Positions 4,548-55,411 of a DNA stretch of 64,000 nucleotides are shown here, piece by piece (positions within the stretch are counted from its first letter, which is position 1; every line of letters begins with the position of its first letter). A program made the position numbers and the translations under genes. This DNA is from Escherichia coli (GTDB lineage: Bacteria; Pseudomonadota; Gammaproteobacteria; Enterobacterales; Enterobacteriaceae). Location of the stretch: assembly GCF_017348835.2 (NCBI RefSeq), contig NZ_CP071375.1. One strand, 5' to 3'. The notes under the pieces are model-generated. The model was not told where the DNA came from. It worked only from the letters and a program-made list of their open reading frames with translations, and ran no database searches.

Positions 4548-4841
4548 CAACGCTGTCTCGCCCTATTTCTGACAATAAATCAAACGGTTGTCTGGATTTG
4601 GCATGATAACGTTTAACGATCCGGTCACGTACAATCGGGCTATCGGGTAACAAGTTATCGAAGAAGTTAAATACGGCATCAGAGGTGATATTCCCCCTCT
4701 GCAATGGCAGCGAAAGTGACAACGGTCTGGCATAACGGCTGGCTAACCACTCCGGTGCATACTTAAAGGTGTGCGCGCCGTTGGCTAACTTCGTTAACTC
4801 GCCTACCCGCTGGTTGTTCATCCAAGTGACTAGTTTGGGCA

Positions 4842-5108
4842 TTACCACTCCAGATCTTGCTGTTCTGTTGATTCTGGCGAGGCATTTTTCGTGTCGCATA
4901 GCGTCATTGAGAGTTCAAGCGACTGTAAAATCTTAAAAAATGTCGTGAGCGAGGTATTGTCAGGGTTGTTTTCGAAATTGGAAATCGTCGCCTGCTTAAT
5001 GCCGATTTTTTTCGCCAGCTCGCTCTGCGTCCAGCCATTTTGCTGGCGAACCAGTTTCATTGCATTCGCTAATTGCGTTGGGCTATAGATCTTCTGAAAG
5101 CTCATCAT
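4842..5108 (-). CDS. hipB: HipB antitoxin / transcriptional repressor
   Basis: ORF matches HipB (MMSFQKIYSPTQLANAMKLVRQQNGWTQSELAKKIG...); stop overlaps the hipA start by 1 nt as in the known operon. Confidence 0.9.
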   Translation of the reverse strand: MMSFQKIYSPTQLANAMKLVRQQNGWTQSELAKKIGIKQATISNFENNPDNTSLTTFFKILQSLELSMTLCDTKNASPESTEQQDLEW

Positions 5109-5318: not shown

Positions 5319-8300
5319 TTACCAGCTATATTTCACTCCCAGCATGCCCTGAGTATCGCTATAGCCTTTATCACCTAGTTGCACACCGACATTCCCCCAC
5401 AGGCTAAGGTTGTTATTTACTTTCGCCTCAACCCCGGTACGTACTTCACCGAGATTACGCGCACCATCACGGCTTACGGTTTGACCATTCATCTTCACGG
5501 CGTAGACTTCGCTATTGTTGATCCAGTTCGCTTCAATGTAAGGCTGGAACTCACGCTGTTTACCATCGTCACGCTGGTGATGGCTATTCAGGTAGGTTTT
5601 CACCCCAAGTCGCGTTTGCACGTTTCCGTCGCCTTCCGTTTCAATGCGCGTTCCGTCTTTCCGGGTATGGTCAGAATCTTTCACACCCATCCAGGTGATT
5701 TGTACCTGTGGCTGGACGTACCAGGTATTCAGCGTCCCTTCGCTGCCACTAAATGTTCCCGCTTCAAAGGTATACCCACCCTCAACAGAGGCCGTCACAC
5801 CGCGAGAATCATAGTCGTCAGCAGAACGGTTATCGGAACTGACACTGTTATCAAACCAGTTATACAGCACCCAACTGTCAACATAAGCGCCGGTCTTATT
5901 CGCATCGTTCTGATACCAGGTCGCGTACAGCCCAGCGCTGTAACCGCTGATGCGCCCATCCGATTTATAACCCACACGATTACTCTGAGTATTACTGTGC
6001 TGATTGGCGTAGCCTGCCATCACGCCAAGATGCCAGCGATCCTGCGCGTTGCTACTCCACTGCGCCAAATCGCCGCCTAGCTGCAATACATAGCGGTTAG
6101 CCTGAGCATTTAGCTGGCCGTCACCGGTCCTGAAACGTTCGTGTCCCCCGACATGACGCATCCACATACTGCTTGCCGAACCCTGAGAAAGCCGTGAATC
6201 TGTATACTGCGGCTCACCCAGACGGTCGTGTAAGCGATGGCTAAACAGCGAGTTGGCTGCGGCAATGTTGCTGATATAGCTTCCGGCCTCCGGGCGATAA
6301 ACTGATGGGCCTTCCGGATCCACAACAGGGGGATTATTGATGGGATCGGGTGTATCCGCTGGCGTTACGCCGTCCCATTTACTGGTCAGATACCAGTTTT
6401 TCTCGTCATTCCCCTTCCCTTTAGCCAGCGTGTAGACGTAAGCCCCAGCTTCGACAGTTCCGGTGGTCAGCGCGAAGTTACCTGCAGAATTACCGCCAAC
6501 CTCAATGAGTTCAATACCGTTGACCGTTTGCGCACCGACGCCGCCAATGTTATCAACCCGAACGCGAGTGTTCCCTTGGGTATCGCCTTTCACGTTCATC
6601 TTATCGGTGGGTGAATTATCGCCGCCCAGCGTCGCGTTGAACGTTATCAGGCCATTGTTTCCGGTATAGTTGCCGTTAACGGTCAGTACATTCCCCGGTT
6701 TTCCTCCTTCACTGTTCATTTGAACCGTGCCGCCATTCTTCAGGTTGCCGCCGATTGTGGTTTTAGCGACACGCAGTGTCCCCCCAGACATAACGTTCAC
6801 ATCACCTGCAGTGGTGACATTTCCCGACATCACACCGCTGTTATGGATATTAATGTGTTGACTTACCGTATTAATGGCAGAGTCGGAACCGAAAGCAATT
6901 TCCCCCCCCCCACGATATCCGTCGTACCCTGATACGCCGAGGAATCGTTGTTAAGAGTCAGGATCCCGGTACCCAGTTTTGTCAAATCACCGCTACCGCT
7001 GATACTGTGCGTCATCGCCCAGCTACGCTCAGTGGAGATGGTGAGCAGGCCATTATTGATAACGGAAGCATCACCCAGGTTTTTCTGCTCGTTGACGCTG
7101 AGCGCGCTGCCTGTATCAATGTTGAATTGCCCCACAAAGCGGCTATTATCGCCATCCAGCTCTACATCTGTCCTGGCGGTTGCGCTCACGATACCCTTCC
7201 CGCTTATGCTATTACGCAGTTCGCCAGTCACGTTTTTTAGCGTTAACAGACCGTCATTGGCAATATTTCCTCTGCCTAACCCCTGCGTATTATCGAGGCT
7301 GACTTCCGCATTTGGGCTAACGCTGGTTAACGCATTGTAGCGTGCATTAAGCCCCTCAATAGCCAGCGTTCCCCCTGTAACATTCAGGTTTCCGCCACCT
7401 GTCAGTTCACCCTGACTGATCCCACCTTTGGACACCGTGGGAACCGTCCTGAACGCCCACCAATGAATATTCTTTGTTATTAATCAGTCCATTATTGGAA
7501 ATATTGACTTTGCCATTACCGAAATATCCATTATAGAGTCTGCGTACCGTGATGACAGAGTCTTGATCCTGCACATTCAGGGTTCCGACACCGGTGGCAT
7601 TGCCACCGATAATCGTATTTTCAGCCGTAATCAGTCCACCCTCGCGAATAGTCGCCTCCCCAGTTCCTTGATTACCAATTTGAAATTCAATTGAGGAATC
7701 GTTATTTTTCATTAGCCACTCGCCACCCTTTTCAACGACAACCTGGCCATTACTGCCCGCCTGATAGCCTAAAATGGCGACGATTGAACTCGTGACGTAA
7801 CCCTTATCCGTAATATTTAATGAGCCTGTACCGTAACTCCCTATTTCGAATAATTCGGTCGTCAAAACCGAGTCCTCTCCCTCAACATTAACCGTCCCGA
7901 CGCCTGCAGCTTGAGTACCTAATCTTAAATAGCCTCCATCGACGTGACCCTTCTGTTTAATATTCAGCGTCCCCGTTCCGGATTGACCCACATTTAAAGG
8001 CCTTGCATTATTTCCGCTATCATACAATCGCCAGGTGCCACCCAAAACATTAACGGTACCCTCCGAATCCTCATTACCGCCAATGACGCTGGTAGTAATA
8101 GTGGTTAAGGAGGCATTACCGCCAGCCAAAATATTAAGCACTCCAGTGCCATACCAGCCAACCAGGTAGGCATCATAAGCAACATCAGTATCAATATTGG
8201 TAATCTGACCATTATCAACTTCCAGACTCGCACCAGACGCTGAACCGCTTAGTGCCAGCAAAACACCCAGCGTCAATCTACTGAATTTCGTTGTCAGTCC

Positions 8301-8414
8301 AGAGGATTTACGCAAATTAACCGTCGATGTTTTACCTGCCCTGCGAGTTAATTCCGAGCAGGCCTGAAATACCTGTAGAGTGCAATTCCATATCACGCGA
8401 TAGATTCTATTCAT
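5319..8414 (-). pseudogene. yneO: AIDA/Ag43-type autotransporter adhesin, frameshifted into three ORFs (yneO-like)
   Basis: ORF 7407..8414 has an extended autotransporter signal peptide (MNRIYRVIWN...), ORF 6863..7435 a Gly/Thr-rich passenger, ORF 5319..6833 a beta-barrel ending in a W terminal residue; all three are in different frames. Confidence 0.8.
6902..6911. repeat. Homopolymeric tract, 10 x C on + strand (G10 on coding strand) at the frame break inside the autotransporter
   Basis: tcccccccccca read directly; both flanking reading frames are open across the tract. Confidence 0.9.
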
Positions 8415-8944
8415 ATAAACGCTCCATATACAAACAATACAGCCACGAAAGAGATGAGTCGTCAGACATTAAAAATGAAACTTATTAAATTGTCAGAGGT
8501 CTGTATTGAGTGTTAGTTGGAGGTGCGAAGGTGTCAATTTGGCTAATTTGCTAATGCTTTCGAATTGATAGATTAAAAATTGCATAGTTCTTATTTTATT
8601 TAAAAATGAACTATGAGTTATTGTTGCTTAATAAGAAAACTGTTTCTTTCAATAGGAAAATTATCATCATCATATTTAACAAAGAATAGCACTAATTGCT
8701 AAAAATCGAAGTTTATTAAACCCCTTTTGCATCCATTAATGTCTTTAGGAATATTCGCTATAAAATAAGGGTTATGCTTAATGCTTTAAGAAAAATAGCA
8801 ATTTTCCCTTGAATATAGTACTGGTGATGGAACGATGAATCTGCAAGCTGGCATTTAACAAGCCAGCTCTAAAAGAAGGGAAATAAGAAAAACTATACTC
8901 AAAAACTAACAGCCACGGTCATCATGATGTGGCTGTCAATGAAA

Positions 8945-10537
8945 CTATAACCCAGGCGCTTTCCATAACGACGTCGTCAGTCCATGATCAACCAGCCCCA
9001 ACTGATCCTGATAAACTGCCTGCCACTTATCGCGTGAATCCTGATAAAGTTCATGCTTTTCCGGGTCTGGTGTGTGCGTCCGTTCCCAGCGAACCAGGCG
9101 TTCTCCGGTTTCTGCCATTGATGAAAAAATTCCGGCACCGACGCCAGCTGCAATGGCACATCCTAATGCAGTGGCTTCTTTGACCACCGGAATATTGACG
9201 GGTAATCCCGAGACATCAGCGAGAATTTGACTCCATAATTTCCCTTTTGAACCTCCGCCAGCAAAAACCAGCGAGGTGGGATGAATATTCGAGAAATCAG
9301 CAATTTGCTGCAAGTTACACGCTGATACAATCGCCGCATTTTCTTCCAGCGCACGGAACAATGTCGCTTTGTTACATTTATCCGGGTCAATGGACAAGTT
9401 AATAAAGGAAGGTGCGGCGTGATACCAGGTTTTAAAGCGCATTCTGTCGGAGAATATCGGCATTACGCCCCACGACCCAGGCGGCACCCGACTGGCCATC
9501 TCTTCCAGCAGCGTATAGGTGTCGATGCCTAAACGTTCGGCAATCAGTTTTTCTTCGGCACAGAAAGCATCGCGGAACCAGCGCATGGTGAATCCGGTAA
9601 AAAAGCTTATAGATTCAGCTTGTACCATGCCAGGAATAACATGAGGATTAACGCGCACGTTCATTTCTGGGTCTGTCACCGGCGCGGCTAAATTTACAAC
9701 TTGCTGCCAGAATGTGCCGCCAAGAACCGCGGTTTGTGCCGGACGCACAACGCCTAACCCCAGGCAACCAAGCTGCACGTCGCCTCCTCCAACGACCACC
9801 GGAGTGCCCACCTTCAGACCGCAGAGTTCCGCCGCTTGTGAACTTACCACGCCCAGCAATGTGCCGGTTTCTTTGACAGGAGAAAGAATATCGGCACGCA
9901 GGCCAGCCATATCCAGCAATGCAGGTTTCCAGTCACGGATGGTTAGATCAAGAAGTCCCGTGGTGCCAGCGTTAGAGGGATCCACCGCAAGTTCGCCGCT
10001 GAGCATATAGGCCAGCCAGTCGCTGATCATGGTGATGGTTGATGCCTGACGGTAAATATCGGAACGATGGTGCGCCAGCCAAAGTAATCTGGGGATGGCA
10101 CTTAAAGCCAGTGTTTGTCCGGTCGCGCGATAAACTTCGTTTTCAAAGGTATTGTTGTGCAGTTCTTTAAGTTCGCTAACTTCACGCGCCGCTCTGGCAT
10201 CCACATTGGCGCAGGCCCAGATCGGTGTTCCTTCATTGTTATATAAAACAATGCCTTCACGCATCGAACATGCCGAAACGGCAGCGATATACTCCGGGGC
10301 TATGCCGGCGTTGTGCAACGCCTGGCGCATACACTCACACGCCAGTTGCCAGTTTTTGTTGAGATCAAATTCCATAGAACCAGGAACGTCCGGTACTGCC
10401 AGATGCCGCCACTCCGCCTGTCCCACTGCTATTTGATTGCCTTCCAGGTCGAATATCACAGCCCGAATACTTCCGGTGCCTGCATCCAGCGCCATCAGGT
10501 AGTACTTTGATTCTGAAGGGGTAAAGAGTCGAACCAT
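8945..10537 (-). CDS. lsrK: Autoinducer-2 kinase
   Basis: 530-aa FGGY carbohydrate kinase ORF; divergent from lsrACDBFG with lsrR between. Confidence 0.9.
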
Positions 10538-10615
10538 TAGATTATCCTCGGCTTATGCGTTCTGTCTGTTCCTCTATACGTTCTCCATCATTCCCGGTAA
10601 TAAGGTCATGCAAAT

Positions 10616-11569
10616 TTAACTACGTAAAATCGCCGCTGCTGTGTCCTGATCGGTAACCAGTGCGTTGATATAACCGCCTTTCATTGCAGCGGCAATTGCT
10701 TCGGCTTTATTTTCTCCCCCTGCCACGCCAACCCGGACGGGTATGGTCTTCAGCGCGCTTAAAGGTAAGCCAATCAGTTCGTTATGTATTTTGATATCCG
10801 TGACAACGTCACCTTTTGCATCAAAAAAGTAGCCTAAAATGTCGCCAACCGCCCCTTTTCGGCCAATCATTAACTGTTCGCCCTGGCTGATATAACCGGA
10901 GCGAATGATTGTCGCGTCGTCTTGTTGACTCACGGCCCCAATGCCGACAATCGCCACATCCGCTGCTTGCGCGGCTAGCAGAACATCTTTGACGCAATTT
11001 TCATTTTTTAGCGTACGGGCAATGTCAGCGGAGGATGCCCGCAACGGAGCCGGAATAATATTCACACTGCACGCCGCGTTAAGCTGCCCGATACCCGTCA
11101 TATAAGAACCGACGCCACCGGAGAGCGTGACCAGGCGAATTTGCTGTGACGAAATAAAACCACTTAAGCGTTGCAGCGTATTCATGGTTGCCTCGCCAAA
11201 ACCAATCGCCAGCATCTGTTGTGGTTGAAGTAAACTCATCAACATATGCGCCGCGCCTATCCCCAGTCGCCCGCCGACATCAGCATCCGCAAGCCCAGGG
11301 ATCACCCGGACATGTTGCAGCGAAAACTGACGACGTAAGTGAGTTTCATATTCCAGACAGCCTTCAAAGCGAGAATTAATCTGTACGCGAATAATGCCGG
11401 ACTGATGCCCTTTCTCCAGTAATCGCGACACTTTCAAACGTGTCAGGCCGAGACGATCGCTGATCTCGCTCTGGGTCAGCCCGTCGTGGTAGTAAAACCA
11501 CGCGATCCGCGCGACCTGTTCTTCTTCACACATTCCCTGTTCTGAAATTGCCGAATCGTTGATTGTCAT
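10616..11569 (-). CDS. lsrR: lsr operon repressor (SorC family)
   Basis: 317-aa ORF with N-terminal HTH and sugar-binding domain; position in lsr locus. Confidence 0.9.
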
Positions 11570-11817
11570 AATTCATTCTTCACTTTGAACATATTTAAAT
11601 CTTTAATGCAATTGTTCAGTTCTTGCGCATTTATATCTGTGATGGCAACCACAGTTTGACTCTACGAGCATGAACAAACGCAACCGTGAAAATCAAAATA
11701 GCATAAATTGTGATCTATTCGTCGGAAATATGTGCAATGCCCACCTAAGGTTATGAACAAATTAAAAGCAGAAATACATTTGTTCAAAACTCACCTGCAA
11801 AACTGAACGGGGGAAAT
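11570..11817. promoter_or_regulatory. Divergent lsrR / lsrA promoter region
   Basis: 248-bp AT-rich intergenic region between divergent lsrR and lsrA; individual binding sites not resolved by eye. Confidence 0.4.
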
Positions 11818-26578: not shown

Positions 26579-27693
26579 ATGGTTACGCCAGTAAGCATCA
26601 GCAATTACATATCTCTTCCTGAAGATTTTCCCGTACGTAATATTGCACCTCAGGTAAAAGAAGTTTTAAAGGATTTTATTGATGCACTTAGTACAATAAT
26701 ATGTGATGAAGAGTGGCGCACGTCTTTAAACATCAACTCAGCCACAAAAAAGATATTTAATAACCTTGACAACTTATCATATATTCAGAGGACTTCTTTT
26801 CGGGGTAACGACACGCTATACAATGAAAAGGTTCAGTTTAAACTCACTTATCCCGCCAGGAATGGAAGACACAAAGAAAATATTGAATTTCAGGTAGTAA
26901 TAAATTTAAGCCCTATTTATTTAGATAATTTCCGCCATGATGGAGAAATTAATATTTTTTGCGCTCCCAACCCAAAGCCTGTCACTATGGGGCGCGTATT
27001 TCAGACCGGCGTCGAGCGTGTGCTATTTCTGTTTCTGAATGATTTTATTGAACAATTTCCAATGATCAACCTTGGTGTTCCCATCAAAAGAGCGCATACA
27101 CCACATATTGAACCCCTGCCTCCGGATCACCATACCGCTGCAGATTACTTACGCCAGTTTGATTTGCTTGTCCTGAATTTTATCTCTCGCGGTAATTTTG
27201 TCATACTCCCCCGATTATGGAATAACTCTGAGGTTCACAGATGGTTCGTCAATAAAGATCCTAACTTGATCACCGCCATTCTCGACATAGCGGACAGCGA
27301 ATTAAAAGAGGATTTATTGCAAAGCCTGATGGATTCATTAGGTTCTAACAAACATGTACTACCCGAAGTCTGCATCTGCTTTTTATCCCTTTTAGCAGAA
27401 CAAGATTTTCCACATTTTCAGGACTTTTTTTATTTTTCGCCAATATGTTATTGCACTATCACCAATTTATGAATCCCAATGAAAGTGATTTGAATGACGT
27501 GTTAATGCCAGCATCATTAAGTGATGATAAAATTATCAAACATATGGCGCGCAAGACCCTCAAACTTTTTGTAAAAAATGAAACACCGCCAAAAGTTACT
27601 CATGAAGACCTGGTGAAAAACAGGCCTCGCTCCCCTGTCAGACCACCTATACCCGCAACCTCCAAAACGCCAGACATTCCTGATCGTCATTAA
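26579..27693 (+). pseudogene. yneK: yneK-like gene split by a frameshift (ORFs 26579..27472 and 27445..27693)
   Basis: Two consecutive ORFs in different frames (297 + 82 aa); both frames are open across a T-rich stretch at 27381-27436 that includes a T7 run. Confidence 0.55.
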
Positions 27694-29037: not shown

Positions 29038-29060
29038 AAAGGCCCATTCGGGCCTTTTTT
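29038..29060. terminator. Bidirectional intrinsic terminator between convergent ydeA and marC
   Basis: aaa-GGCCC-attc-GGGCC-tttttt hairpin with an A-run before and T-run after. Confidence 0.75.
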
Positions 29061-29724
29061 AATGGTACGTTTTAATGATTTCCAGGATGCCGTTAATAAT
29101 AAACTGCACACCCATACATACCAGCAGGAACCCCATCAGGCGGGAGATCGCTTCAATGCCACCCTTGCCCACCAGCCGCATAATTGCGCCAGAGCTGCGT
29201 AGACTTCCCCACAAAATAACCGCCACCAGGAAAAAAATCAGCGGCGGCGCAACCATCAGTACCCAATCAGCAAAGGTTGAACTCTGACGCACTGTGGACG
29301 CCGAGCTAATAATCATCGCTATGGTTCCCGGACCGGCGGTACTTGGCATTGCCAGTGGTACAAAAGCAATATTGGCACTGGGTTCATCTTCCAGCTCTTC
29401 CGACTTGCTTTTCGCCTCCGGTGAATCAATCACTTTCTGTTGCGGAAAGAGCATCCGAAAACCGATAAACGCGACGATTAAGCCGCCTGCAATTCGCAGA
29501 CCGGGAATCGAAATGCCAAATGTATCCATCACCAGTTGCCCGGCGTAATACGCCACCATCATGATGGCAAAGACGTACACCGAGGCCATCAACGACTGAC
29601 GATTACGTTCGGCACTGTTCATGTTGCCTGCCAGGCCAAGAAATAACGCGACAGTTGTTAATGGGTTAGCTAACGGCAGTAACACCACCAGCCCCAGGCC
29701 AATTGCTTTAAACAAATCTAACAT
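29059..29724 (-). CDS. marC: Inner-membrane protein MarC
   Basis: 221-aa membrane ORF divergent from marRAB. Confidence 0.9.
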
Positions 29725-29837
29725 TGGTGGTTGTTATCCTGTGTATCTGGGTTATCAGCGAAAAGTATAAGGGGTAAACAAGGATAAAGTGTCACTCTTT
29801 AGCTAACCTTGCATCGCATTGACCAAAACTTGAACCG

Positions 29838-29935
29838 ATTTAGCAAAACGTGGCATCGGTCAATTCATTCATTTGACTTATACTTGCCTGGGCAATATTA
29901 TCCCCTGCAACTAATTACTTGCCAGGGCAACTAAT
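29838..29935 (+). promoter_or_regulatory. marO: marbox, marRAB promoter (-35 TTGACT 29873-29878, -10 TATTAT 29896-29901) and two MarR operator palindromes
   Basis: Marbox-like gatttagcaaaacgtggcat at 29838-29857; MarR site I TACTTGCCTGGGCAATATTAT over the -10; site II TAATTACTTGCCAGGGCAACTAATG abutting the marR GTG start. Confidence 0.8.
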
Positions 29936-30370
29936 GTGAAAAGTACCAGCGATCTGTTCAATGAAATTATTCCATTGGGTCGCTTAATCCATATGGTTAA
30001 TCAGAAGAAAGATCGTCTGCTTAACGAGTATCTGTCTCCGCTGGATATTACCGCGGCACAGTTTAAGGTGCTCTGCTCTATCCGCTGCGCGGCGTGTATT
30101 ACTCCGGTTGAACTGAAAAAAGTGTTGTCGGTCGACCTGGGAGCACTGACCCGTATGCTGGATCGCCTGGTCTGTAAAGGCTGGGTGGAAAGGTTGCCGA
30201 ACCCGAATGATAAGCGCGGCGTACTGGTAAAACTTACCACCAGCGGCGCGGCAATATGTGAACAATGCCATCAATTAGTTGGCCAGGACCTGCATCAAGA
30301 ATTAACAAAAAACCTGACGGCGGACGAAGTGGCAACACTTGAGCATTTGCTTAATAAAGTCCTGCCGTAA
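29936..30370 (+). CDS. marR: Multiple antibiotic resistance repressor
   Basis: 144-aa ORF starting at GTG; winged-helix MarR sequence. Confidence 0.9.
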   Translation: MKSTSDLFNEIIPLGRLIHMVNQKKDRLLNEYLSPLDITAAQFKVLCSIRCAACITPVELKKVLSVDLGALTRMLDRLVCKGWVERLPNPNDKRGVLVKLTTSGAAICEQCHQLVGQDLHQELTKNLTADEVATLEHLLNKVLP

Positions 30371-30390: not shown

Positions 30391-30774
30391 ATGTCCAGAC
30401 GCAATACTGACGCTATTACCATTCATAGCATTTTGGACTGGATCGAGGACAACCTGGAATCGCCACTGTCACTGGAGAAAGTGTCAGAGCGTTCGGGTTA
30501 CTCCAAATGGCACCTGCAACGGATGTTTAAAAAAGAAACCGGTCATTCATTAGGCCAATACATCCGCAGCCGTAAGATGACGGAAATCGCGCAAAAGCTG
30601 AAGGAAAGTAACGAGCCAATACTCTATCTGGCAGAACGATATGGCTTCGAGTCGCAACAAACTCTGACCCGAACCTTCAAAAATTACTTTGATGTTCCGC
30701 CGCATAAATACCGGATGACCAATATGCAGGGCGAATCGCGCTTTTTACATCCATTAAACCATTACAACAGCTAG
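30391..30774 (+). CDS. marA: AraC-family activator of the mar regulon
   Basis: [31 protein letters not shown]... two-HTH AraC protein. Confidence 0.9.
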
Positions 30775-30805: not shown

Positions 30806-31024
30806 ATGAAACCGCTTTTATCCGCAATAGCAGCTGCGCTTATTCTCTTTTCCGCGCAGGGCGTTGCGGAACAAACCCAGCAACCGCTCGTTACTTCCTG
30901 TGGCGATGTGGTGGTTGTTCCCCCATCGCAGGAACAACCACCGTTCGATTTAAATCACATGGGTACAGGCAGTGATAAGTCGGATGCGCTCGGCGTGCCC
31001 TATTATAATCAACACGCTATGTAG
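30806..31024 (+). CDS. marB: Periplasmic protein MarB
   Basis: 72-aa ORF with signal peptide. Confidence 0.85.
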   Translation: MKPLLSAIAAALILFSAQGVAEQTQQPLVTSCGDVVVVPPSQEQPPFDLNHMGTGSDKSDALGVPYYNQHAM

Positions 31025-33376: not shown

Positions 33377-33772
33377 TTATTCTGAGGCAAAGGCATAGCC
33401 TTCATCTTCCCAGCCGGTTATCCCGCCGAGCATGATTTTAACCGGCTTTCCGAGTCGAGCCAGTTTGAGTGCCGCACGGTCTGCACCGTTACAATGTGGC
33501 CCCGCGCAATACACCACAAATAGCGTATCGTCGGGCCATTCGGCCATTCTTTCTGCGGTCATTTGCTTATGGGGTAAATGGAGAGCGCCTGGGATATGCC
33601 GACGCGCGAAGTCCTCTTCACGTCCAACCACATGAAGTAAAACGAAATCATCGCCAATATAAGCCAGAGAGTCATGAACATCGGCGCAATCTGTTTCGAC
33701 ACTCAAGCGCGCGAGAAAATGCGCCTCAGCAACTTCTGGCTTCGCTGTGGTAAATTCAGTGACATAACGCAT
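33377..33772 (-). CDS. Rhodanese-domain protein (putative sulfurtransferase)
   Basis: 131-aa ORF with a rhodanese active-site Cys loop (VVYCAGPHCNGA). Confidence 0.7.
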   Translation of the reverse strand: MRYVTEFTTAKPEVAEAHFLARLSVETDCADVHDSLAYIGDDFVLLHVVGREEDFARRHIPGALHLPHKQMTAERMAEWPDDTLFVVYCAGPHCNGADRAALKLARLGKPVKIMLGGITGWEDEGYAFASE

Positions 33773-33845
33773 ATTGCTTTGTCCTTTTGGTTTGTTGTGT
33801 TAACAATAATGTAACTAATCTACCTTTCACTGACCGCCTCTCGAT

Positions 33846-34838
33846 ATGCCAGAAATGAGCAAAATGATGACAACGTTACAACGTCCGCTGGTCATTGCAC
33901 TGGCATATGACGGGCTATGTACTTTTGAATTTGGCGTTGCCGTTGAAATATTCGGCCTGCCACGACCGGAACTGGGCGATAATTGGTATCGTTTTGCTGT
34001 TGCTGCGGTAGAACCTGGTGCGCTACAAGCCACCGGGGGGATCCACGTGGTTGCAGATGGTGGACTGGAGTTATTGCCCAACGCCGATATGATTATTATT
34101 CCTGGCTGGCGCGGAATAGATGCCAAAGTGCCGGAGATGCTATGCCAGTCATTGCGCGAGGCACACCAGCGCGGTACTCGCCTGGTATCAATATGCTCTG
34201 GCGTGTTTGTCCTTGCTGCTGCGGGCCTTCTTCATCAGCGAAAAGCAACCACCCACTGGCGCTACACTGAACAACTCCAGCACCGTTACCCTTCAATCAG
34301 CGTAAGTGACAATGTGTTATATCAGGATGAAGGACAAGTGATGACCTCCGCCGGAAGCGCCGCGGGGATCGATCTGTGTTTACATATCGTGCGCAAAGAT
34401 TTTGGTCATGAGATTGCTAATAATGTCGCCCGGCGACTGGTCATTCAGCCACATCGCCAGGGGGATCAACCACAAAATCTGACGCGCCCAATGGCCTCAC
34501 CGCGTGAAAGCCAGACGTTAGGTGCCTTATTCGACTTTTTGCAGCAGAATCTGGCACAAACACATACTGTGTCTTCCCTCGCCGAACGGGTAAATATGAG
34601 TCCGCGCACTTTTTTAAGACGTTTTGAGGCGTTAACTGGCATGACGCCCGCCCGCTGGCTGCTCAATGAGCGCTTAATACGAGTACAGGATTATCTGCAA
34701 AATTCGGTTTTTAACATCGAGAAAATTGCCGAGCTGACGGGTTTTGGCAATTCAGCGTTATTGCGTCATCACTTTCACCAACGTTTTTTATTATCTCCTT
34801 CGCAATATCGCAAAAACAGCCGTTCCCCATCACAATAA
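33846..34838 (+). CDS. GlxA/FtrA-like regulator: DJ-1/PfpI domain fused to AraC HTH
   Basis: 330-aa ORF; N-terminal DJ-1/PfpI-like fold with nucleophile-elbow Cys (ICSGVFVLAAAG), C-terminal AraC double HTH. Divergent from the rhodanese gene. Confidence 0.75.
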   Translation: MPEMSKMMTTLQRPLVIALAYDGLCTFEFGVAVEIFGLPRPELGDNWYRFAVAAVEPGALQATGGIHVVADGGLELLPNADMIIIPGWRGIDAKVPEMLCQSLREAHQRGTRLVSICSGVFVLAAAGLLHQRKATTHWRYTEQLQHRYPSISVSDNVLYQDEGQVMTSAGSAAGIDLCLHIVRKDFGHEIANNVARRLVIQPHRQGDQPQNLTRPMASPRESQTLGALFDFLQQNLAQTHTVSSLAERVNMSPRTFLRRFEALTGMTPARWLLNERLIRVQDYLQNSVFNIEKIAELTGFGNSALLRHHFHQRFLLSPSQYRKNSRSPSQ

Positions 34839-44588: not shown

Positions 44589-45192
44589 AATTCACAGGTG
44601 TTTTTTCCCATCCTGTGGTTTCCTTGGCGTTTTCTAGGTTTTTTCAGATAGTTGCATTTTTTAAAAAGCATCCTAAGTTCGATCTCAGTGTCTATCTGGG
44701 GCCTATTTCTGTCCCATATATGCCCCAAAAAAAACTCCCCAACAGATAAGTAGTTTTTTCATGGATTTATGCGTAAAATCAAGAACGGCTGGAAATCATT
44801 CAATACTCACACTATCGAAAAATTTACCAGCCAACCGCAGCACGTTCTTGCATAAGGCGTGTCTGCGGTTTTTCAACTATTCAGATACATCACTCCCATC
44901 ACATTCATTCCTCCGCATCAAAGGCATATAGGCTATATCACCTTGATATTTTTATTTTTCAGATAAAAACTGTTATCTATGTATACTTTTAAACCCAATC
45001 CGTGTAGAGTCTCTGCATAAGATAGTTTGCAGTTGCCGCTTCAGCTTGCGCCATAAATCGCCTGATTTTTGCTGCCACCTGTTAGCATTCCTGTATACCT
45101 GAAACGACAATGTTTATCTACGAACTTTAAGAACACCCAAGATAAAAATTGTCAACTATATCATATATAACACATTACTAATTCGAGGCTAT

Positions 45193-45306
45193 ATGAACAG
45201 CATACTGATAATCACATCTCTCCTTATCATATTCAGCATTTTTAGTCATGCCCTAATAAAATTAGGGATTGGCATATCCAATAACCCAGACAAAACCGAT
45301 GTATAA
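45193..45306 (+). CDS. Hypothetical small hydrophobic protein (37 aa)
   Basis: [37 protein letters not shown]; one predicted TM helix; weak ribosome-binding site. Confidence 0.3.
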
Positions 45307-45374
45307 GTCAACATATCCTGAATCAGACATACAATATCGCAATGAAAATCAATAATATTTTAAGGAATATCTTC

Positions 45375-45608
45375 ATGAAATCAAAAGACACCCTAAAGTG
45401 GTTCCCTGCGCAGCTTCCTGAAGTAAGAATTATCCTAGGGGATGCTGTAGTGGAAGTAGCAAAACAGGGAAGACCTATCAATACCAGAACATTGCTTGAT
45501 TACATTGAAGGAAACATAAAGAAAAAATCATGGCTGGATAACAAAGAATTATTACAAACAGCGATATCAGTTCTTAAAGACAACCAAAATTTAAATGGTA
45601 AAATGTAA
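45375..45608 (+). CDS. ydfK: Prophage cold-shock-associated small protein
   Basis: ORF starting MKSKDTLKWFPAQLPEVRIILGD after AAGGAA. Confidence 0.75.
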   Translation: MKSKDTLKWFPAQLPEVRIILGDAVVEVAKQGRPINTRTLLDYIEGNIKKKSWLDNKELLQTAISVLKDNQNLNGKM

Positions 45609-45924
45609 TATAATAAACTTACTTTTTTATCATTTTTCCACTTTAACAACATTTTGCTCCACTTTTCCACGACCAAACAACTTGAAATCTGGTTAAAATA
45701 ACACGCAACACTATTCTTCTTCCTTGAGTCCGCCCGGAACTCGAAAAACAAACCGAGTTAAAGCCATTTTTCACAAAATCGATTTTGGGTCTCACCAAAA
45801 TTACGGGGTTGCATACGCATTCGTTTATTTTCGAACGTGTACATACAAATATGCACAAAAATAATCAAAATTATTTTCTGAGATGCATTATGATATGAAC
45901 ACCAATTTCGTATAGAGTCTCACT

Positions 45925-46515
45925 ATGTCTCGAATTTTTGCTTACTGTCGGATATCAACGCTGGATCAGACCACCGAAAATCAACGCCGGGAAATCGAAA
46001 GTGCAGGTTTTAAAATCAAACCTCAGCAAATAATCGAAGAACACATTAGCGGCTCAGCAGCAACCAGTGAGCGTCCTGGTTTTAACCGGTTGCTTGCTCG
46101 CCTGAAATGTGGTGATCAATTGATTGTGACAAAACTGGATCGCCTTGGTTGTAATGCAATGGATATCAGGAAAACAGTGGAACAACTGACCGAAACAGGT
46201 ATCAGAGTGCATTGCTTAGCATTGGGGGGCATTGACCTGACCAGTCCAACAGGAAAAATGACGATGCAAGTAATTTCAGCAGTCGCTGAATTTGAACGAG
46301 ACCTTTTACTTGAACGCACTCATTCCGGGATAGTAAGAGCCCGGGGCGCAGGGAAACGTTTTGGTCGACCACCTGTGTTAAATGAAGAACAGAAACAGGT
46401 GGTATTCGAACGAATTAAGTCAGGTGTAAGTATAAGTGCCATTGCCCGGGAATTCAAAACCTCGCGGCAAACCATTTTAAGAGCCAAAGCAAAACTTCAG
46501 ACACCTGACATATAA
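45925..46515 (+). CDS. pinQ: Serine recombinase (DNA invertase/resolvase family)
   Basis: 196-aa ORF with N-terminal catalytic motif YCRISTLDQ and C-terminal HTH. Confidence 0.8.
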
Positions 46516-46612
46516 AAAATAATCTCGGTGTGAGATGCTTTACGTCTTCCAAGCCACCTTCCTTGCCGTAAATGGAAAGATACATCTAATTATAGAATTT
46601 ATATGTTTTACC

Positions 46613-47188
46613 CTACGGCAGTGCTGGCCATTCAATATCCTGTGCAGTTGACGTATCAACACGGTTCAGCAATACCCGATACTTTTTCCATGCTTCCAGC
46701 AACGAGATTTCTTCCTCCGTTGCAATTTCCAGATCTGCAGCATCCTGAAGCGGCGCAATATGCTCACTGGCTACCTGCATCAGGCTGTTTTTTGTTTCTT
46801 CCGCCTCCCGGATCCGGAACAGTTTTTCTGCTTCCGTATCCTTCACCCAGGCTGTGCCGTTCCACTTCTGATATTCCCCTCCCGGCGATAACCAGGTAAC
46901 ATTTTCCGGTAACGGACCGAGTTCAGAAATAAATAACGCGTCGCCGGAAGCCACGTCATAAACCGTTTTACCCCGATGATCTTCAACGAGATGCCACGAT
47001 GCCTCATCACTGTTGAAAACAGCCACGAAGCCTGCCGGAATATCTGGCGGTGCAATATCGATACTGTTTGCTGGCAGACCTGTATGAGGCGGAATATATG
47101 CGTCACCTTCACCAATAAATTCATTAGTTCCGGCCAGCAGATTATAAATTTTTATGGTCCGTGGTTGTTCACTCATTCTGAATGCCAT
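46613..47188 (-). CDS. tfaQ: Tail fibre assembly protein
   Basis: 191-aa Tfa-like ORF directly downstream of the tail-fibre C-terminus. Confidence 0.8.
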
Positions 47189-48741
47189 TATGCAAGCCTC
47201 ACAATATAGTTAAATGCGATGTTTTTGACGGTGTTTTCCGCGTTACCAGCAGCGTTAACGGTGATGGTATGTCCATGTGAACCAATCGCAACGGAGTGCG
47301 TATGAGCACCAATACCGACAGTATGTGCGTGTGCACCTGCGCTTGCAGCAGTACCCGATACAGAGTGCGTATGAGCGCCTGCAGAAGAAGTGTTAACACT
47401 GTATTTAGAGTAATCAGGTGATCCACTTCCCGGAGCACCACTGGAACCACCTGAAACAAATGTCATCGAATGGGTATGTGCACCGGCTGAAGCAGCCGTA
47501 CCGCTAACACTATGGGTATGCGCACCAGTGTTATTCGTGGATTTAGTGCCGTAATCAAACGACGATGTGGTTTTCGTCCCCAAATCCGTACTGGATACGC
47601 TGGCGCTGTGGGTGTGTGATTTAATGCCGTCCTGTTCCTGAGACAATACGGCTCGATCACTGGCGGGCTTGCCCTTAATCGTCCAGCCACGCATATCCCC
47701 TTTCGTTTTCATCCAGTCTTTGACAATCTGCACCCAGGTGGTGAACGGGCTGTACGCTGTCCAGATGTGAAAGGTCACACTGTCAGGTGGCTCAATCTCT
47801 TCACCGGATGACGAAAACCAGAGAATGCCATCACGGGTCCAGATCCCGGTCTTTTCGCAGATATAACGGGCATCAGTAAAGTCCAGCTCCTGCTGGCGGA
47901 TGACGCAGGCATTATGCTCGCAGAGATAAAACACGCTGGAGGGGTCATCCGGCGTCCATTTGAGGCCAAACGGCGTCTCTTTGTCGCCAAATTTAAGATA
48001 CTGCTCCTCCCCGCAGTGCGGGCAGGCAACATGAAAACGCATAAAATGCGGGGATTCACTGGCTGCACGCTCAATCTGGCAGGTGCCTCTCACTTTGGGC
48101 GTGGAGCCACGGATGGACTTTGGCCAGACCGAGCCTTCAATACGTTTGTCGCCAAGGAACGTCGGAGAGCCTTCCTGTTCAATATCCTCATCAAAGGCAG
48201 CAAGTTCATCATAACCCGCCACATCCACCGACTTTTCACGGTAGTTTTTTGCCGCTTTACCGCCCAGGCACCAGAAGCCACGACCATTGGAAAAACGCTT
48301 CATAGTGAGCGTGTTATCCCGGTGCTTTTTGCCATACCACGGAGCCAGCGCCAGCAGCGACGGAATATCGCGGATGGTCGGCTCAACGTGGGTTTTCATA
48401 AAGTTCTCGGCATCACCATCCGTCGGCAACCAGATAAGTGTGTTGCGCTGCTTATGCTCTATAAAGTAGACATAAACACCCAGCAGCATTTTGGAATAAC
48501 CGACACGGGCAGACTTCACCACATTCACCTCACGGATGTAGTCGCTGCCCATCGCATTCATGATGGCCCGCTGAAAGGGCAGTGTTTCCCAGCGCCCTTC
48601 CTGGTATGCGGATTCTTTCGGGAGATAGTAATTAGCATCCGCCCATTCAACGGCGGTCTGTGGCTCCGGCCTGAACAGTGAGCGAAGCCCGGCGCGGACA
48701 AAATGCCGCAGCCTGTTAACCTGACTGTTCGATATATTCAC
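47188..48741 (-). pseudogene. stfQ: In-frame fusion: lambda gpA-like large terminase N-terminal ~350 aa (47694..48741) joined to a side tail fibre C-terminus (47188..47693)
   Basis: ORF starts [23 protein letters not shown]... (lambda A) to ...[10 protein letters not shown], then switches to His-rich tail-fibre sequence ([20 protein letters not shown]...). Confidence 0.8.
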
Positions 48742-49261
48742 TCAGCAACCCCGGTATCAGTTCATCCAGCGCGGCTGCTTTGTTCATGGCTTTGATGATA
48801 TCCCGTTTCAGGAAATCAACATGTCGGTTTTCCAGTTCCGGAAAACGCCGCTGCACCGACAGGGGGATCCCGTCGAGAATACTGGCAATTTCACCTGCGA
48901 TCCGCGACAGCACGAAAGTACAGAATGCGGTTTCCACCACTTCAGCGGAGTCTCTGGCATTTTTCAGTTCCTGTGCGTCGGCCTGCGCACGCGTAAGTCG
49001 ATGGCGTTCGTACTCAATAGTCCCTGGCTGGAGATCTGTCTCGCTGGCCTGCCGCAGTTCTTCAACTTCCCGGCGCAGCTTTTCGTTCTCAATTTCAGCA
49101 TCCCTTTCGGCATACCATCTTATAACGGCGGCAGAGTCATAAAGCACCTCATTACCCTTGCCACCGCCTCGCAGAACGGGCATTCCCTGTTCCTGCCAGT
49201 TCTGAATGGTACGGATACTCGCACCGAAAATGTCAGCCAGCTGCTTTTTGTTGACTTCCAT
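48716..49261 (-). CDS. nohA: Terminase small subunit (lambda Nu1 homologue)
   Basis: 181-aa [45 protein letters not shown]...; overlaps the A start as in lambda. Confidence 0.9.
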
Positions 49262-49450
49262 TGTTCATTCCACGGACAAAAACAGAGAAAGGAAACGACA
49301 GAGGCCAAAAAGCCCGTTTTCAGCACCTGTCGTTTCCTTTCTTTTCAGAGGGTATTTTAAATAAAAACATTAAGTTATGACGAAGAAGAACGGAAACGCC
49401 TTAAACCGGAAAATTTTCATAAATAGCGAAAACCCGCGAGGTCGCCGCCC
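49262..49450 (-). other. Lambda-type cos site: cosN 12-nt cohesive end at 49439..49450, cosB region between cosN and nohA
   Basis: Minus strand reads CCGACAGGTTACG-GGGCGGCGACCT-CGCGGGTTTTCGCTATTTATGAAAATTTTCCGGTTTAAGG, the lambda end junction, then a lambda-like region up to the Nu1 start. Confidence 0.85.
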
Positions 49451-49649
49451 CGTAACCTGTCGGATCACCGGAAAGGACCCGTAAAGTGATAATGATTATC
49501 ATCTACATATCACAACGTGCGTGGAGGCCATCAAACCACGTCAAATAATCAATTATGACGCAGGTATCGTATTAATTGATCTGCATCAACTTAACGTAAA
49601 AACAACTTCAGACAATACAAATCAGCGACACTGAATACAGGGCAACCTC

Positions 49650-49844
49650 ATGTCAACGAAGAACAGAACCCGCAGAACAACAACCCGCAACATCCGCTTT
49701 CCTAACCAAATGATTGAACAAATTAACATCGCTCTTGATCAAAAAGGGTCCGGGAATTTCTCAGCCTGGGTCATTGAAGCCTGCCGCCGGAGACTAACGT
49801 CAGAAAAGAGAGCATATACATCAATCCAGAGTGATGATGGATGA
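49650..49844 (+). CDS. Small prophage protein, YlcI/YnfO-like
   Basis: 64-aa basic ORF immediately beyond cos. Confidence 0.5.
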   Translation: MSTKNRTRRTTTRNIRFPNQMIEQINIALDQKGSGNFSAWVIEACRRRLTSEKRAYTSIQSDDG

Positions 49845-50094
49845 ACATCCCGGTTTCTTTACCTTCCCTCCCTCCCCGCACAGAACTGGCGAGCGTGAGG
49901 GACCAATATGTGAGCCATAAATGCCTTATCTTCAGAAATGCAGTTGGTATCCGAACAGGACGATATTGTAAATTCACCTAAATACGAGGCATTGCTGTAG
50001 TTGAATTGCAGTACTGTATTAGCCTGACAGTGACAGAATACGATATTGACTCTGTCACTTGTGAAATGGTCAGAATGGTTAGCAGTTATGGTGA

Positions 50095-50301
50095 TCAGTC
50101 AACCAACAGGGAATAATCCTTCGTATTCTTATCGTGCTTTACTAACGCGGCCTCAATTGCCCTGAATGCTTCCAGAGATACTTGATGTTCTATACATGCA
50201 ATTACAACATCCGGGTAACCCATCGAAATGGTGCTATTAAGCATAGTTTTTACACGAACCTGCTCCTGGGAGGGGGCATCAATGTATTGATCTTTATGCA
50301 T
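50095..50301 (-). CDS. Hypothetical prophage protein
   Basis: 68-aa ORF; function unknown. Confidence 0.4.
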
Positions 50302-50596
50302 TTTGTCGCTCCATTCGTTTGCTCTTCACTTGCGGCTAAAAATATAACGTCAAATCACTCAGCATGAAAGAGTGAAAGTTTCAGCGCGTTTCCCTTACAT
50401 AATCTGTCGTTTGTATTCTCTTCAGGCATACCGGAAAGACTAGGTATTGTCACACAACCAATACCATCGACAATCGAGATTTATATCTATTCGGTAATGT
50501 TTAAATATAACAAAACCCCGTAAAAACGAGGTTTATGGGTAATTTGTATTGTTGAATAGCATCTGATGAGAAATTGATGCTAATACTATAAACATG

Positions 50597-50770
50597 CTAG
50601 ATTAAATCAATCTTGATATCATAGCTTTCAAGACCAGTCATTTTTTCCCGTGCAGTAAACTGGATACTGGTAACTTCTTTCCCGGTCTTTTTCTTAAGCT
50701 CAATGATTTTTTTTGTTATATATTCAGAAATATCTGCTTCTGTTTTTGTTTTTAACTCTTCAATGTTCAT
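50597..50770 (-). CDS. gnsB: GnsA/GnsB-family protein
   Basis: 57-aa ORF MNIEELKTKTEADISEYITKKIIELKKKTGKEV...ESYDIKIDLI; GAGG ribosome-binding site. Confidence 0.7.
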   Translation of the reverse strand: MNIEELKTKTEADISEYITKKIIELKKKTGKEVTSIQFTAREKMTGLESYDIKIDLI

Positions 50771-50942
50771 CATTTCCTCTTTTAGTCTGTTATGACTGTC
50801 CTGGTACACAGTAGTGTCAATTATATGGAGCAAACGTATAAAAGATAAGATGAAACATCGCAATAATCAACATACGACGGTCTAAATTTCACACAAACAG
50901 ATAAAAATGATTATCATTTATTATCAATGCATTAGAATCAAA

Positions 50943-51173
50943 TCAATTCAAGAGTCTCATTGCTGCTTCCAGAATTTCTTCTGAAGTTACATGTCGATCC
51001 GCTGCTACATAAATGACTTTATGATCTCCGGTCAGAGATGGAAACCCTGCAGCCATTACAGTGAGGTGTGTTGTTTCGCCATTTGGATATTCACGCATGA
51101 TGGTGTTAACTCCGGTCATCACTGGCACTACCATTGCTGGTTCAGAGTTAAAAAAAACTATTATTTTTTTCAT
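50943..51173 (-). CDS. Small prophage protein (YnfN-like); start codon uncertain
   Basis: ORF 50943..51212 with several possible in-frame starts. Confidence 0.4.
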   Translation of the reverse strand: MKKIIVFFNSEPAMVVPVMTGVNTIMREYPNGETTHLTVMAAGFPSLTGDHKVIYVAADRHVTSEEILEAAMRLLN

Positions 51174-51444
51174 AATGTTACCGTAATATGTGAGTATCCA
51201 TCGACTAGACACTAAGCAAAAAAGCTCCCGAAGGAGCCTTCATTTTCACTTTCTTAAATCTAACGACAGATGGCTAACATTTAAGTATTGTGAAATATTA
51301 TCAAATGTAATCATCATTGATTTACAAAAGATACATTTTGCCCCGAAAGGATTTCTGTCAGAAACATCAAAAGATGATGTTCTATACTGAGAACCATGGC
51401 AACACGGGCATCTAAAGTGAATATGGTTTGTAATATTTTCTACC

Positions 51445-51657
51445 TCAAAGTGCCACTACATGAACAGCTGCAGGGCCTTTAGGTCCGTTCTCAATACCAA
51501 ATTCGACTTCCTGATTCTCAGTTAACGTTTTGAAATCGTTGCTCTGAATAGCTGAGAAATGCACAAACACATCTTTGCTACCATCTTTCGGCGTGATGAA
51601 ACCAAAACCTTTTTCAGGGTTAAACCATTTCACTAAACCAGTCATTTTGTTAGACAT
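51445..51657 (-). CDS. cspI: Cold-shock protein
   Basis: 70-aa cold-shock-domain ORF ([21 protein letters not shown]...). Confidence 0.9.
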
Positions 51658-52020
51658 CATTATTACCTTTTGAAGAAGTTAGCCCTTGGGCAGAATGGTC
51701 CGAAAAAAAATATCAGAGAGAAAAACCAACAAGGAAATCTCAAGAGGTACAAATAATAAAATTATAACAATGACTGCTTCAGATAATTTTGTAACAAACC
51801 AGAACACCATTAACGCATGATTAACCAACCATAGCAAGGATTACTTTTGTAAAGAAAAACACACGAATGAAACAATAGCTTTATTTATTAATAAAACGTG
51901 TCATTCTGTCTAATGACCTTTTATCTTACCCTTAAGATTTCAAGGATTTTGACTCATGGAAGAGTCCTTTTTATTTAAATTTCACATTCAGCGCTAAAAA
52001 TAATCCGATTTAATATTAAT

Positions 52021-53050
<1,030 letters not shown>

Positions 53051-53163
53051 GGATATTTATCAGGATTTATCGGCTTCAAATCCCCGGATATGTTAAATCT
53101 TACCTCACCAGTGATGGGCACTGGCGGGAGGAGGATGTCAATCTGATAAACACAGAGGTGACT

Positions 53164-53424
53164 ATGGATTACACAAATCTACCAAAACAAACTTTTGCTG
53201 ATTTAATCGCACTCAGGCAAGCAGTCGTAGCTCTAATCAACTTGTTGCCGGAGAAGGAAAAGGAATTAGTTAAAGCGCTTCTTAACAGAACTGCCGCCGA
53301 TTTTTCATCATATCCACTGACAGATGACCTTGCGGACCTTCCTGAATTAATTGCAGCGTCCGCCATTAAGCTTACTGAAGAGATTTACCCTCCTCAAAAA
53401 TCTTCACAAAATTCCTGCGAGTAA
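53164..53424 (+). CDS. Hypothetical acidic protein on the opposite strand inside the lysis cassette
   Basis: 86-aa ORF from ATG at 53164, preceded by AGAGG at 53153-53157; helical acidic sequence; no homologue recognised. Confidence 0.4.
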   Translation: MDYTNLPKQTFADLIALRQAVVALINLLPEKEKELVKALLNRTAADFSSYPLTDDLADLPELIAASAIKLTEEIYPPQKSSQNSCE

Positions 53425-53923
53425 CTTCAATGCAATAATCGTAAAACGCCGCAAACTGCTCATCGCGGCGTTTTTTTTCATCTTCAGAAGGAATCAGCAC
53501 CGACAATTTTTTATTCAGATCAGCGACGCTGCCCTCCAGTTTTTCAATGGGCGATTCAATATCATCTTTTTCTGACCGCAATGCCGTCGGTGGCGTCTTC
53601 AGAGAACCAGTAATTCTTCCCGGTAGCTTTCCTTTGTAGGTTATCCACACATTCTGCGCCTCTAAAATTATGGGGCGCTTTTCCGGCGACTGCTCATCCC
53701 CTTCACATAACCCGGCAGCAACATCCAGGAAGACCTGTCTGATGCTCATTCTGGCTGCTGCCTCATAAAACTCCAGCGCGGCACCTTCAACACGGTCCAG
53801 CGAGATGTCCAGGTCAAAAATTTCACCGTCAAAGCGTTCTTTGTCCTGTAATGCTAAAGTTACCGTAACTTTATTCTCAAAATTGCGGATCCCTTTCACA
53901 ATCAGTTCATAGTTTTGAGTCAT
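53372..53923 (-). CDS. Prophage protein between holin and endolysin (YdfR-like position)
   Basis: 183-aa ORF; same position as K-12 ydfR, but that gene is recalled as shorter. Confidence 0.5.
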   Translation of the reverse strand: MTQNYELIVKGIRNFENKVTVTLALQDKERFDGEIFDLDISLDRVEGAALEFYEAAARMSIRQVFLDVAAGLCEGDEQSPEKRPIILEAQNVWITYKGKLPGRITGSLKTPPTALRSEKDDIESPIEKLEGSVADLNKKLSVLIPSEDEKKRRDEQFAAFYDYCIEVTRRNFVKIFEEGKSLQ

Positions 53924-53927
53924 TGAA

Positions 53928-54143
53928 TTACTCTCCTCTCGCAGCCTTACGCCTGTCTTCTTTAATCTTGAAATAAAGATTTGTCAGATACGTCAGCAGG
54001 CCAAAAACCAGGCTACCCAGCACACCGATTGCAGCCCACTGTGACGGAGTTACTTTATCGAGTAACTGCAATGCCCAGAAACCAGCATTACCCGCCGATG
54101 TGCCATAGGCAACACCTGTTGTTAACTTATCCATTGATTTCAT
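53928..54143 (-). CDS. essQ: Holin (phage-21 S-type pinholin-like)
   Basis: [71 protein letters not shown]; two TM helices and a charged C-terminus. Confidence 0.85.
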
Positions 54144-54363
54144 ATCCTCACCCCGATGTACACGGATGGTGCAATATGTTTGAAAAGATCGGAGTCTACG
54201 GGGTAGTTTTGACAGCACACGTTGTTCTCAACGGCGCTAAAGAAACATACACATTAAAAATGTGAGTAATTATTTTTTAAAGAAAGTCATATATAAAATA
54301 ATAATACGAGAAATGTTTTCATATTTAGTGTACTGTATACGGCCATTTATACAGGAAAAGCCT

Positions 54364-54534
54364 ATGTCAGAACGTAAAGACTCAAAATCACGCCGTAATT
54401 ATCTCGTTAAATGTTCCTGCCCAAACTGCACCCAAGAGTCAGAACACAGTTTTTCAAGAGTACAAAAAGGTGCCCTTTTGATCTGCCCTCATTGCAACAA
54501 AGTATTCCAGACAAATCTTAAAGCTGTAGCCTGA
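54364..54534 (+). CDS. Small zinc-ribbon protein (56 aa, two CxxC pairs)
   Basis: MSERKDSKSRRNYLVKCSCPNCTQESEHSFSRVQKGALLICPHCNKVFQTNLKAVA; ribosome-binding site AGGAAAAG. Confidence 0.55.
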   Translation: MSERKDSKSRRNYLVKCSCPNCTQESEHSFSRVQKGALLICPHCNKVFQTNLKAVA

Positions 54535-54593
54535 TTGATTTTATTAGTAACAAGTATTTTTTATATTTTAATAATATATTTAAAGCAGATAAT

Positions 54594-54617
54594 AAAAAAC
54601 CCGCCTGAGCGGGTTTG
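54594..54617. terminator. Bidirectional intrinsic terminator
   Basis: A-run + CCCGC-ctga-GCGGG + ttt. Confidence 0.7.
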
Positions 54618-54897
54618 AGATTGTGGTGCTTTTTGTGGGAGTCATCCACTTACGCACTTTGTTTTGCCATGCCAGCAGTTAGCTTCTGCTGTAAAACTAT
54701 TCATGCAGCAAACCTGCACTTCACCACAATGGTTAGCATACTTTTCCTGATTAAGATTTTGCCAAATATGCTGGCCATTGTTTCATGTATTGGACCTCCT
54801 TAATTTTCATTAAAGAGATCCAATATTCACTACTCTGTCCGTATCTCTACTCAGGCATCAGCCTTCTTCGTTATCGTATACAGACGAGCGATGAATT

Positions 54898-55113
54898 TTA
54901 ATCAGTAATGATGACATTTGCTGCTGCAGGACCTTTAGCACCACTCTCTATAGAGAAGGTAACCTTTTGACCTTCAAATAAGGTTCGATAATTATCATTC
55001 TGAATCGCAGAAAAATGCACAAACACATCTTTACTACCATCAACAGGAGAAATAAAGCCGAAACCTTTATCAGCGTTAAACCATTTTACTAAACCAGTCA
55101 TTTTATTTGACAT
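54898..55113 (-). CDS. cspB: Cold-shock protein
   Basis: 71-aa cold-shock-domain ORF. Confidence 0.9.
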
Positions 55114-55411
55114 TCTACATTCCTTAACTTGAGCCTTTCGGCATAAATGGTTTGCATAACAGAAACGACTTCGTACTTAATTGGAGAGACTCAAAGAAGG
55201 AATAAGTGAATAACACCTGAAATGAGAACTGCTTTAGTAAACTACTTCGTATATCGTCTGTTCTTCAAACCGACGCAGTCATTAACTCATAGTTGAACAT
55301 ATGAAGCAATGTTTATTTTAGACATCCAGCCACCTTCAACCCTATCAAAAAAGTAGTTTTCTCCAGGAACGTGTGTATGGTGCACCAGGTTATCAGTATT
55401 AAGGAGTTTTT

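Follow-up and report, generated by a model that had tools for sequence, protein, structure and literature searches.

The marR gene in the 64,000-nucleotide stretch of Escherichia coli DNA that we analyzed (here called the window) is very probably an ordinary allele, encoding a common form of MarR that recently acquired one further substitution, K140N, and operating in a normal mar circuit. The locus would be the ordinary chromosomal marC/marRAB region of an E. coli strain very near the porcine O108:H9 strain PE164. The variation seen here is ordinary allelic variation in a well-known operon, and the exact allele is already in RefSeq.

The gene lies at positions 29936 to 30370 on the plus strand, starts with GTG, and encodes a winged-helix repressor of 144 amino acids, as indicated by the list of open reading frames, the match to PDB 3VOE, the NCBIfam models, and the annotation of PE164. 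The references for comparison were the wild-type K-12 MarR of PDB 3VOE and the MG1655 gene b1530 (NC_000913, positions 1619120 to 1619554). All 144 residues aligned to 3VOE (E = 1.7e-91) with three mismatches, and the amino acid differences from K-12 are exactly G103S, Y137H, and K140N (141/144 residues identical). Being direct differences in sequence, they do not depend on chance. At the nucleotide level, the gene differs from that of MG1655 at 8 of 435 positions, of which three are nonsynonymous and five synonymous (30016, 30121, 30124, 30211, and 30295). Codon 103 (30242 to 30244) is AGC for Ser where K-12 has GGC for Gly (30242 G>A), codon 137 (30344 to 30346) is CAT for His where K-12 has TAT for Tyr (30344 T>C), and codon 140 (30353 to 30355) is AAT for Asn where K-12 and almost all other E. 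coli have AAG for Lys (30355 G>T). The alignment to K-12 MarR, which a first-pass annotation of this DNA had proposed as a check on its own reading, thus found three residues that are not identical; it bears out both G103S and Y137H, and K140N, which had been listed as a possible difference, is equally real. The resulting S103/H137/N140 protein is the same as that of PE164 and corresponds to RefSeq WP_207184209.1.

The protein matched the NCBIfam equivalog NF008565 over residues 1 to 144 of 144 with 317.7 bits (cutoff, 240) and Pfam PF01047 with 66.6 bits (cutoff, 24.6). Its identity of 98% to the structures 3VOE, 1JGS, and 5H3R indicates a winged helix-turn-helix fold with flanking N- and C-terminal helices. 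The AF2 model (pLDDT, 82.9) placed helices at residues 5 to 36, 40 to 52, 57 to 64, 68 to 80, 102 to 115, 118 to 124, and 129 to 142 and strands at residues 84 to 88 and 96 to 100. In this model, residue 103 is at the start of the helix from 102 to 115, right behind the wing, and residues 136 to 140, including both 137 and 140, are inside the C-terminal helix from 129 to 142. In the sequence, Cys80 and the DNA-binding residues are the same as in K-12. Compared with the K-12 MarR locus (b1530; PDB 1JGS, 3VOE, and 5H3R), the window has the same MarR length, GTG start, Cys80, winged-helix region, operator sites, and promoter.

Alleles were counted in 5,426 complete E. coli genomes by megablast with 33-nt queries designed so that each 28-nt seed word had to cover the variant site. 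The counts for codons 137 and 140 total 5,406 of the 5,415 marR-bearing genomes, so that nearly all are accounted for. Ser103 was found in 4,202 of the 5,426 genomes and the K-12 residue Gly103 in 1,189. His137 together with Lys140 was found in 4,213/5,426, the K-12 type (Tyr137 with Lys140) in 1,192/5,426, and His137 with Asn140 in 1/5,426, which gives ∼4,214 genomes with His137 overall (4,213 plus 1). The Ser103/His137 state therefore accounts for ∼77% of the genomes and the K-12 form for ∼22%. Ser103/His137 is the species-typical E. coli allele, and K-12 is a minority outlier. The first-pass annotation had described G103S and Y137H as common natural polymorphisms, which understates the case, since they are the majority state. 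It had also described them as regarded as neutral, a description supported by the variability of the two positions in orthologues and by published work. Other enterobacteria, sampled by 79 orthologue cluster representatives, have E, D, H, S, Q, or N at residue 103 and any of Y, H, L, Q, F, and A at residue 137; both positions are hypervariable, and neither is constrained. Most published work likewise treats the two changes as harmless. The G103S/Y137H pair is present in fully susceptible isolates (levofloxacin MIC, 0.016 to 0.25 µg/mL) and has no association with levofloxacin resistance (PMC4317672), it is the commonest MarR substitution pair in livestock isolates from Norway (PMC7082582), it has not by itself been demonstrated to increase AcrAB-TolC activity (PMC8597741), and it has been stated to have no effect on repressor activity (PMC11753663).

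A different reading appears in some genome surveys, which describe G103S and Y137H as resistance mutations or ascribe acrAB upregulation to them (PMC11504656 and PMC8976530). Applied to this strain, it would mean that the two substitutions confer resistance and that the mar operon is derepressed. We consider this very improbable and effectively already refuted by a frequency of ∼77% among 5,426 complete genomes, by the susceptible isolates without a resistance association (PMC4317672), by the report that repressor activity is not altered (PMC11753663), and by the hypervariability of both positions in orthologues. Although of little biological importance, the matter has some practical weight: resistance gene pipelines and many genome papers take K-12 as the reference for marR and so list G103S and Y137H as "mutations." Given that the K-12 form makes up only ∼22% of complete genomes and Ser103/His137 ∼77%, such calls should not be taken as resistance determinants.

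Whereas G103S and Y137H have the high natural frequency expected of common polymorphisms, K140N does not. It is the sole rare change of the three: PE164 alone carries it among the 5,426 complete genomes, and beyond these it occurs in a few dozen other assemblies. The first-pass annotation was thus correct that all three substitutions are real but treated as an afterthought the only one that is rare (1/5,426). Because K140N is rare, its neutrality cannot be deduced from its frequency. The exact N140 protein was found in 15 contigs in one count and in 31 index blocks in another, whereas the two major alleles are each found in at least 1,000 contigs. Exact-sequence lookups in the sequence collection returned no N140 protein on a G103/Y137, G103/H137, or S103/Y137 background. 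It is important to note that the 90% identity cluster of MarR holds 3,030 distinct sequences, so that rare single-residue alleles are commonplace.

A single base that produces a rare variant could in principle be a sequencing or assembly error in the window. The probability of such an error is negligible here, and this explanation is already refuted by independent assemblies: the AAT codon is also present in the complete genome of PE164, in the independent assemblies SRR17241678 and GCA_032490375.1, and in 21 similar places, and the site lies outside any homopolymer run. PE164 (NZ_CP114128; from a pig in Nanjing) has a marR DNA sequence 100% identical to that of the window. It is an O108:H9 aEPEC/ExPEC hybrid isolated from a piglet, and strains with its fused colanic-acid/O108 gene cluster belong mostly to phylogroup E (PMC12233904). 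We rejected the idea that the window is the same sequence as PE164, as the two differ by 9 bases over 52 kb and by an IS3-associated deletion; PE164 is a close relative.

After PE164, the complete genome nearest to the window is that of F2_81, a pig isolate from Australia, whose MarR is WP_000843419.1 with Lys140 (AAG). Across the core region from 16209 to 45000, the window and F2_81 differ only at 21043, 26369, and 30355 and by a 1-nt indel at 27424. Since F2_81 is nearly identical and yet has Lys140, K140N is recent and derived within this lineage. WP_000843419.1 (S103/H137/K140), which is found in O145:H28, O157:H7, F2_81, and PK8568, is the direct ancestor of the window MarR, from which it differs at residue 140 alone. 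Asn140 thus arose recently through one base change (AAG>AAT) in the common S103/H137 allele and was inherited by one sublineage. K140N can be used as a marker of this porcine O108:H9-related sublineage.

The substitution has also arisen elsewhere. In ERR12666591 (L005), codon 140 (L005:3418 to 3420) encodes Asn as AAC, not AAT, and the background is unlike that of the window: there are 47 differences over 2 kb, the T insertion described below for the marR-marA spacer is missing, marB is K-12-like, and a 6-phospho-beta-glucosidase gene and a porin gene are found downstream of marB. The nearest complete genomes to ERR12666591 are PK8568 (chicken) and SZQ1 (sludge), which differ from it at 3 of 6,435 bases and have AAG at codon 140. 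A different codon on an unrelated background whose relatives have AAG means that K140N has had at least two independent origins. By itself, this recurrence supports selection only weakly, since so many distinct MarR sequences are already present in the 90% identity cluster.

The elements that control the operon were compared in a four-way alignment of the marC-marR intergenic region, marO (29725 to 29935, plus strand). Only two positions differ from K-12, 29806 (A versus G) and 29823 (C versus A); both are upstream of the marbox. O145, PE164, and ERR12666591 have the same two variants, which are therefore common. Position 29823 lies ∼86 nt ahead of the start of transcription, within the Fis-site region of the mar promoter. 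The segment at 29837 to 29856 (plus strand; GATTTAGCAAAACGTGGCAT), which we take to be the marbox, the activator site of MarA, SoxS, and Rob, is identical to that of K-12. So is the marRAB promoter at 29873 to 29901 (plus strand), TTGACT and TATTAT separated by 17 nt, which matched 10 of 12 positions in a promoter scan. The core of MarR site I (29881 to 29895, plus strand; TACTTGCCTGGGCAA) contains an internal palindrome, TTGCC-N2-GGCAA, and is located between the −35 and −10 elements, and the core of site II (29916 to 29930, plus strand; TACTTGCCAGGGCAA) is located just upstream of the marR GTG. Both cores belong to the direct-repeat family D2 and are 93% identical to each other. They are identical to the K-12 sites, which are the established MarR binding sites of marO, and their positions overlap both the promoter and the leader of marR. 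The first-pass description of the operator as unaltered thus holds for the −35 and −10 elements, both MarR sites, and the marbox but misses the two SNPs at 29806 and 29823. The marR leader of PE164 carries a T>C change (L001:2977, equivalent to window position 29912) a few bases before the site II core, at a position occupied by T in the window, K-12, O145, and F2_81.

The gene order, with a divergent marC followed by marR, marA, and marB, is canonical, and synteny is the same as in MG1655 (b1529 to b1532), with ydeA upstream and eamA downstream as in K-12. MarR, MarA, MarB, and MarC all scored well above their NCBIfam equivalog cutoffs. The divergent marC (29059 to 29724, minus strand) encodes an NAAT-family membrane protein (NCBIfam NF008228, 374.8 bits; cutoff, 162; Pfam MarC) with a single substitution relative to K-12, A98V. 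The AraC-family activator gene marA (30391 to 30774, plus strand; NCBIfam NF008564, 294.3 bits) carries two synonymous changes, at 30618 and 30759, and its protein is identical to that of K-12, in agreement with the first-pass statement that marA is unaltered. The same statement about marB (30806 to 31024, plus strand; 72-aa product; NCBIfam NF007508) was wrong, as MarB differs from that of K-12 by six substitutions (S5L, T25Q, V28L, A33G, N34D, and H44Q), of which S5L, A33G, and H44Q are reported to be frequent in clinical isolates (PMC8597741). The window further differs from K-12 by an extra T in the marR-marA spacer at 30379 (ACAAAAAATGAGG versus ACAAAAAAGAGG), directly 5′ of the marA Shine-Dalgarno sequence GAGG. 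The exact 33-mer with this insertion was found in only 63 of the 5,426 complete genomes, including O145:H28, and is far rarer than G103S/Y137H.

MarR is a winged-helix homodimer that binds two sites in marO and represses marRAB (see also PMC11259696). In the window, a MarR dimer on the two near-identical sites (TACTTGCC-W-GGGCAA) would keep marRAB repressed. MarR is released by salicylate-type ligands or when Cu(II) drives the oxidation of Cys80, after which MarA is made and activates acrAB-tolC and the rest of the mar regulon. Every sequence element of this circuit is intact and K-12-like here, and on that basis we predict that the window MarR very probably confers normal, inducible repression. 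K140N is most likely to have very little or no phenotype.

As the main alternative, K140N could be a mild loss-of-function (hypomorphic) allele with slight derepression of marRAB. Loss of the charge of Lys140 would break an i,i+4 pair with Glu136 and slightly destabilize the dimer, and the resulting low-level multidrug tolerance would have been selected recurrently in antibiotic-exposed pig or poultry lineages. Several observations favor this alternative or speak against an ordinary allele. Position 140 is not free to vary: among the 79 non-E. coli representatives, it is Lys in 63 and Arg in 7 (70/79, or 89% basic), the other eight aligned sequences have T, S, or A, and Asn at this position is found only in the present allele in the representative alignment. 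Further, among 93 representatives, Glu136 pairs with Lys or Arg at 140 in 79 of 80 cases, the exception being the N140 allele, and an uncharged residue is found at 140 only where residue 136 is Tyr or Asn. This pattern is compatible with an i,i+4 ion pair. The C-terminal helix, in which residue 140 lies, is presumably, from the crystal structures, part of the dimer interface or dimerization region and remote from the DNA, and a small effect of K140N on MarR stability is conceivable. Moreover, K140N arose twice independently, through different codons and in livestock-associated backgrounds both times; it is among just three SNPs that separate the window from F2_81 in the ∼29-kb core; and the further change of PE164 adjoining MarR site II would, under this alternative, reinforce derepression.

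We nevertheless consider a hypomorphic allele unlikely. The covariation of positions 136 and 140 probably stems from a single clade and thus from one or two evolutionary events, and position 140 can be T, S, or A in functional orthologues. The change from Lys to Asn is conservative and on a likely solvent-exposed face. With 3,030 distinct alleles, any single substitution is expected to recur without selection, and although the chance probability of one marR hit among three SNPs is only ∼4 to 5%, this is a post hoc figure. A full-text literature search on marR K140N returned no report, including none that links the substitution to resistance, and a search for a deep mutational scan of MarR returned nothing relevant. 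The documented loss-of-function marR mutants, from selected or clinical isolates, carry frameshifts, deletions, or changes such as A70E/T or a deletion of residues 97 to 107. In contrast, the window has none of these lesions: neither its reading frame nor its DNA-binding domain or wing is disrupted, and no frameshift, stop, deletion, or proven derepressing substitution was found in the intact 144-aa ORF. If K140N proved to weaken repression, it would be a minor addition to the list of mar-derepressing alleles.

Beyond the mar locus, the window has several further features. The hipA gene (3697 to 4899) is broken by a 441-bp remnant of an IS3-family element at 4108 to 4548. In PE164, the IS3 in hipA is complete, and relative to that genome the window is without ∼1.49 kb made up of part of the IS and part of hipA; in F2_81, hipBA is intact. 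The otherwise nearly identical F2_81 lacks the region from 5537 to 16209, which contains autotransporter pseudogenes, lsrK, lsrR, and lsrACDB; at the junction it carries a truncated lsrB and autotransporter fragments. A diguanylate cyclase gene (21225 to 22643, minus strand) has an internal stop at codon 330, and the annotations of PE164 and F2_81 both list it as a pseudogene. In yneK (26579 to 27693), a run of seven T residues at 27424 to 27430 is shared by the window and PE164, while F2_81 has a run of eight, and the difference frameshifts the gene. It is annotated as a pseudogene in PE164; as the site is a homopolymer, this may be a real frameshift or a sequencing artifact.

Downstream of the mar operon, at ∼33377 to 34838, a rhodanese-like gene and ftrA are located between ydeE and mgtS, whereas in K-12 ydeE is directly followed by mgtS. 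The last part of the window, from 45000 to 64000, is a Qin-like defective prophage (pinQ, tfaQ, nohA, cspI/B/F, essD, rzpQ, and ydfT) that has a copy of IS3 inside it at ∼56514 to 57823. Of the 34 differences between the window and F2_81, 28 cluster at 45058 to 50246, which suggests a patch of recombination.
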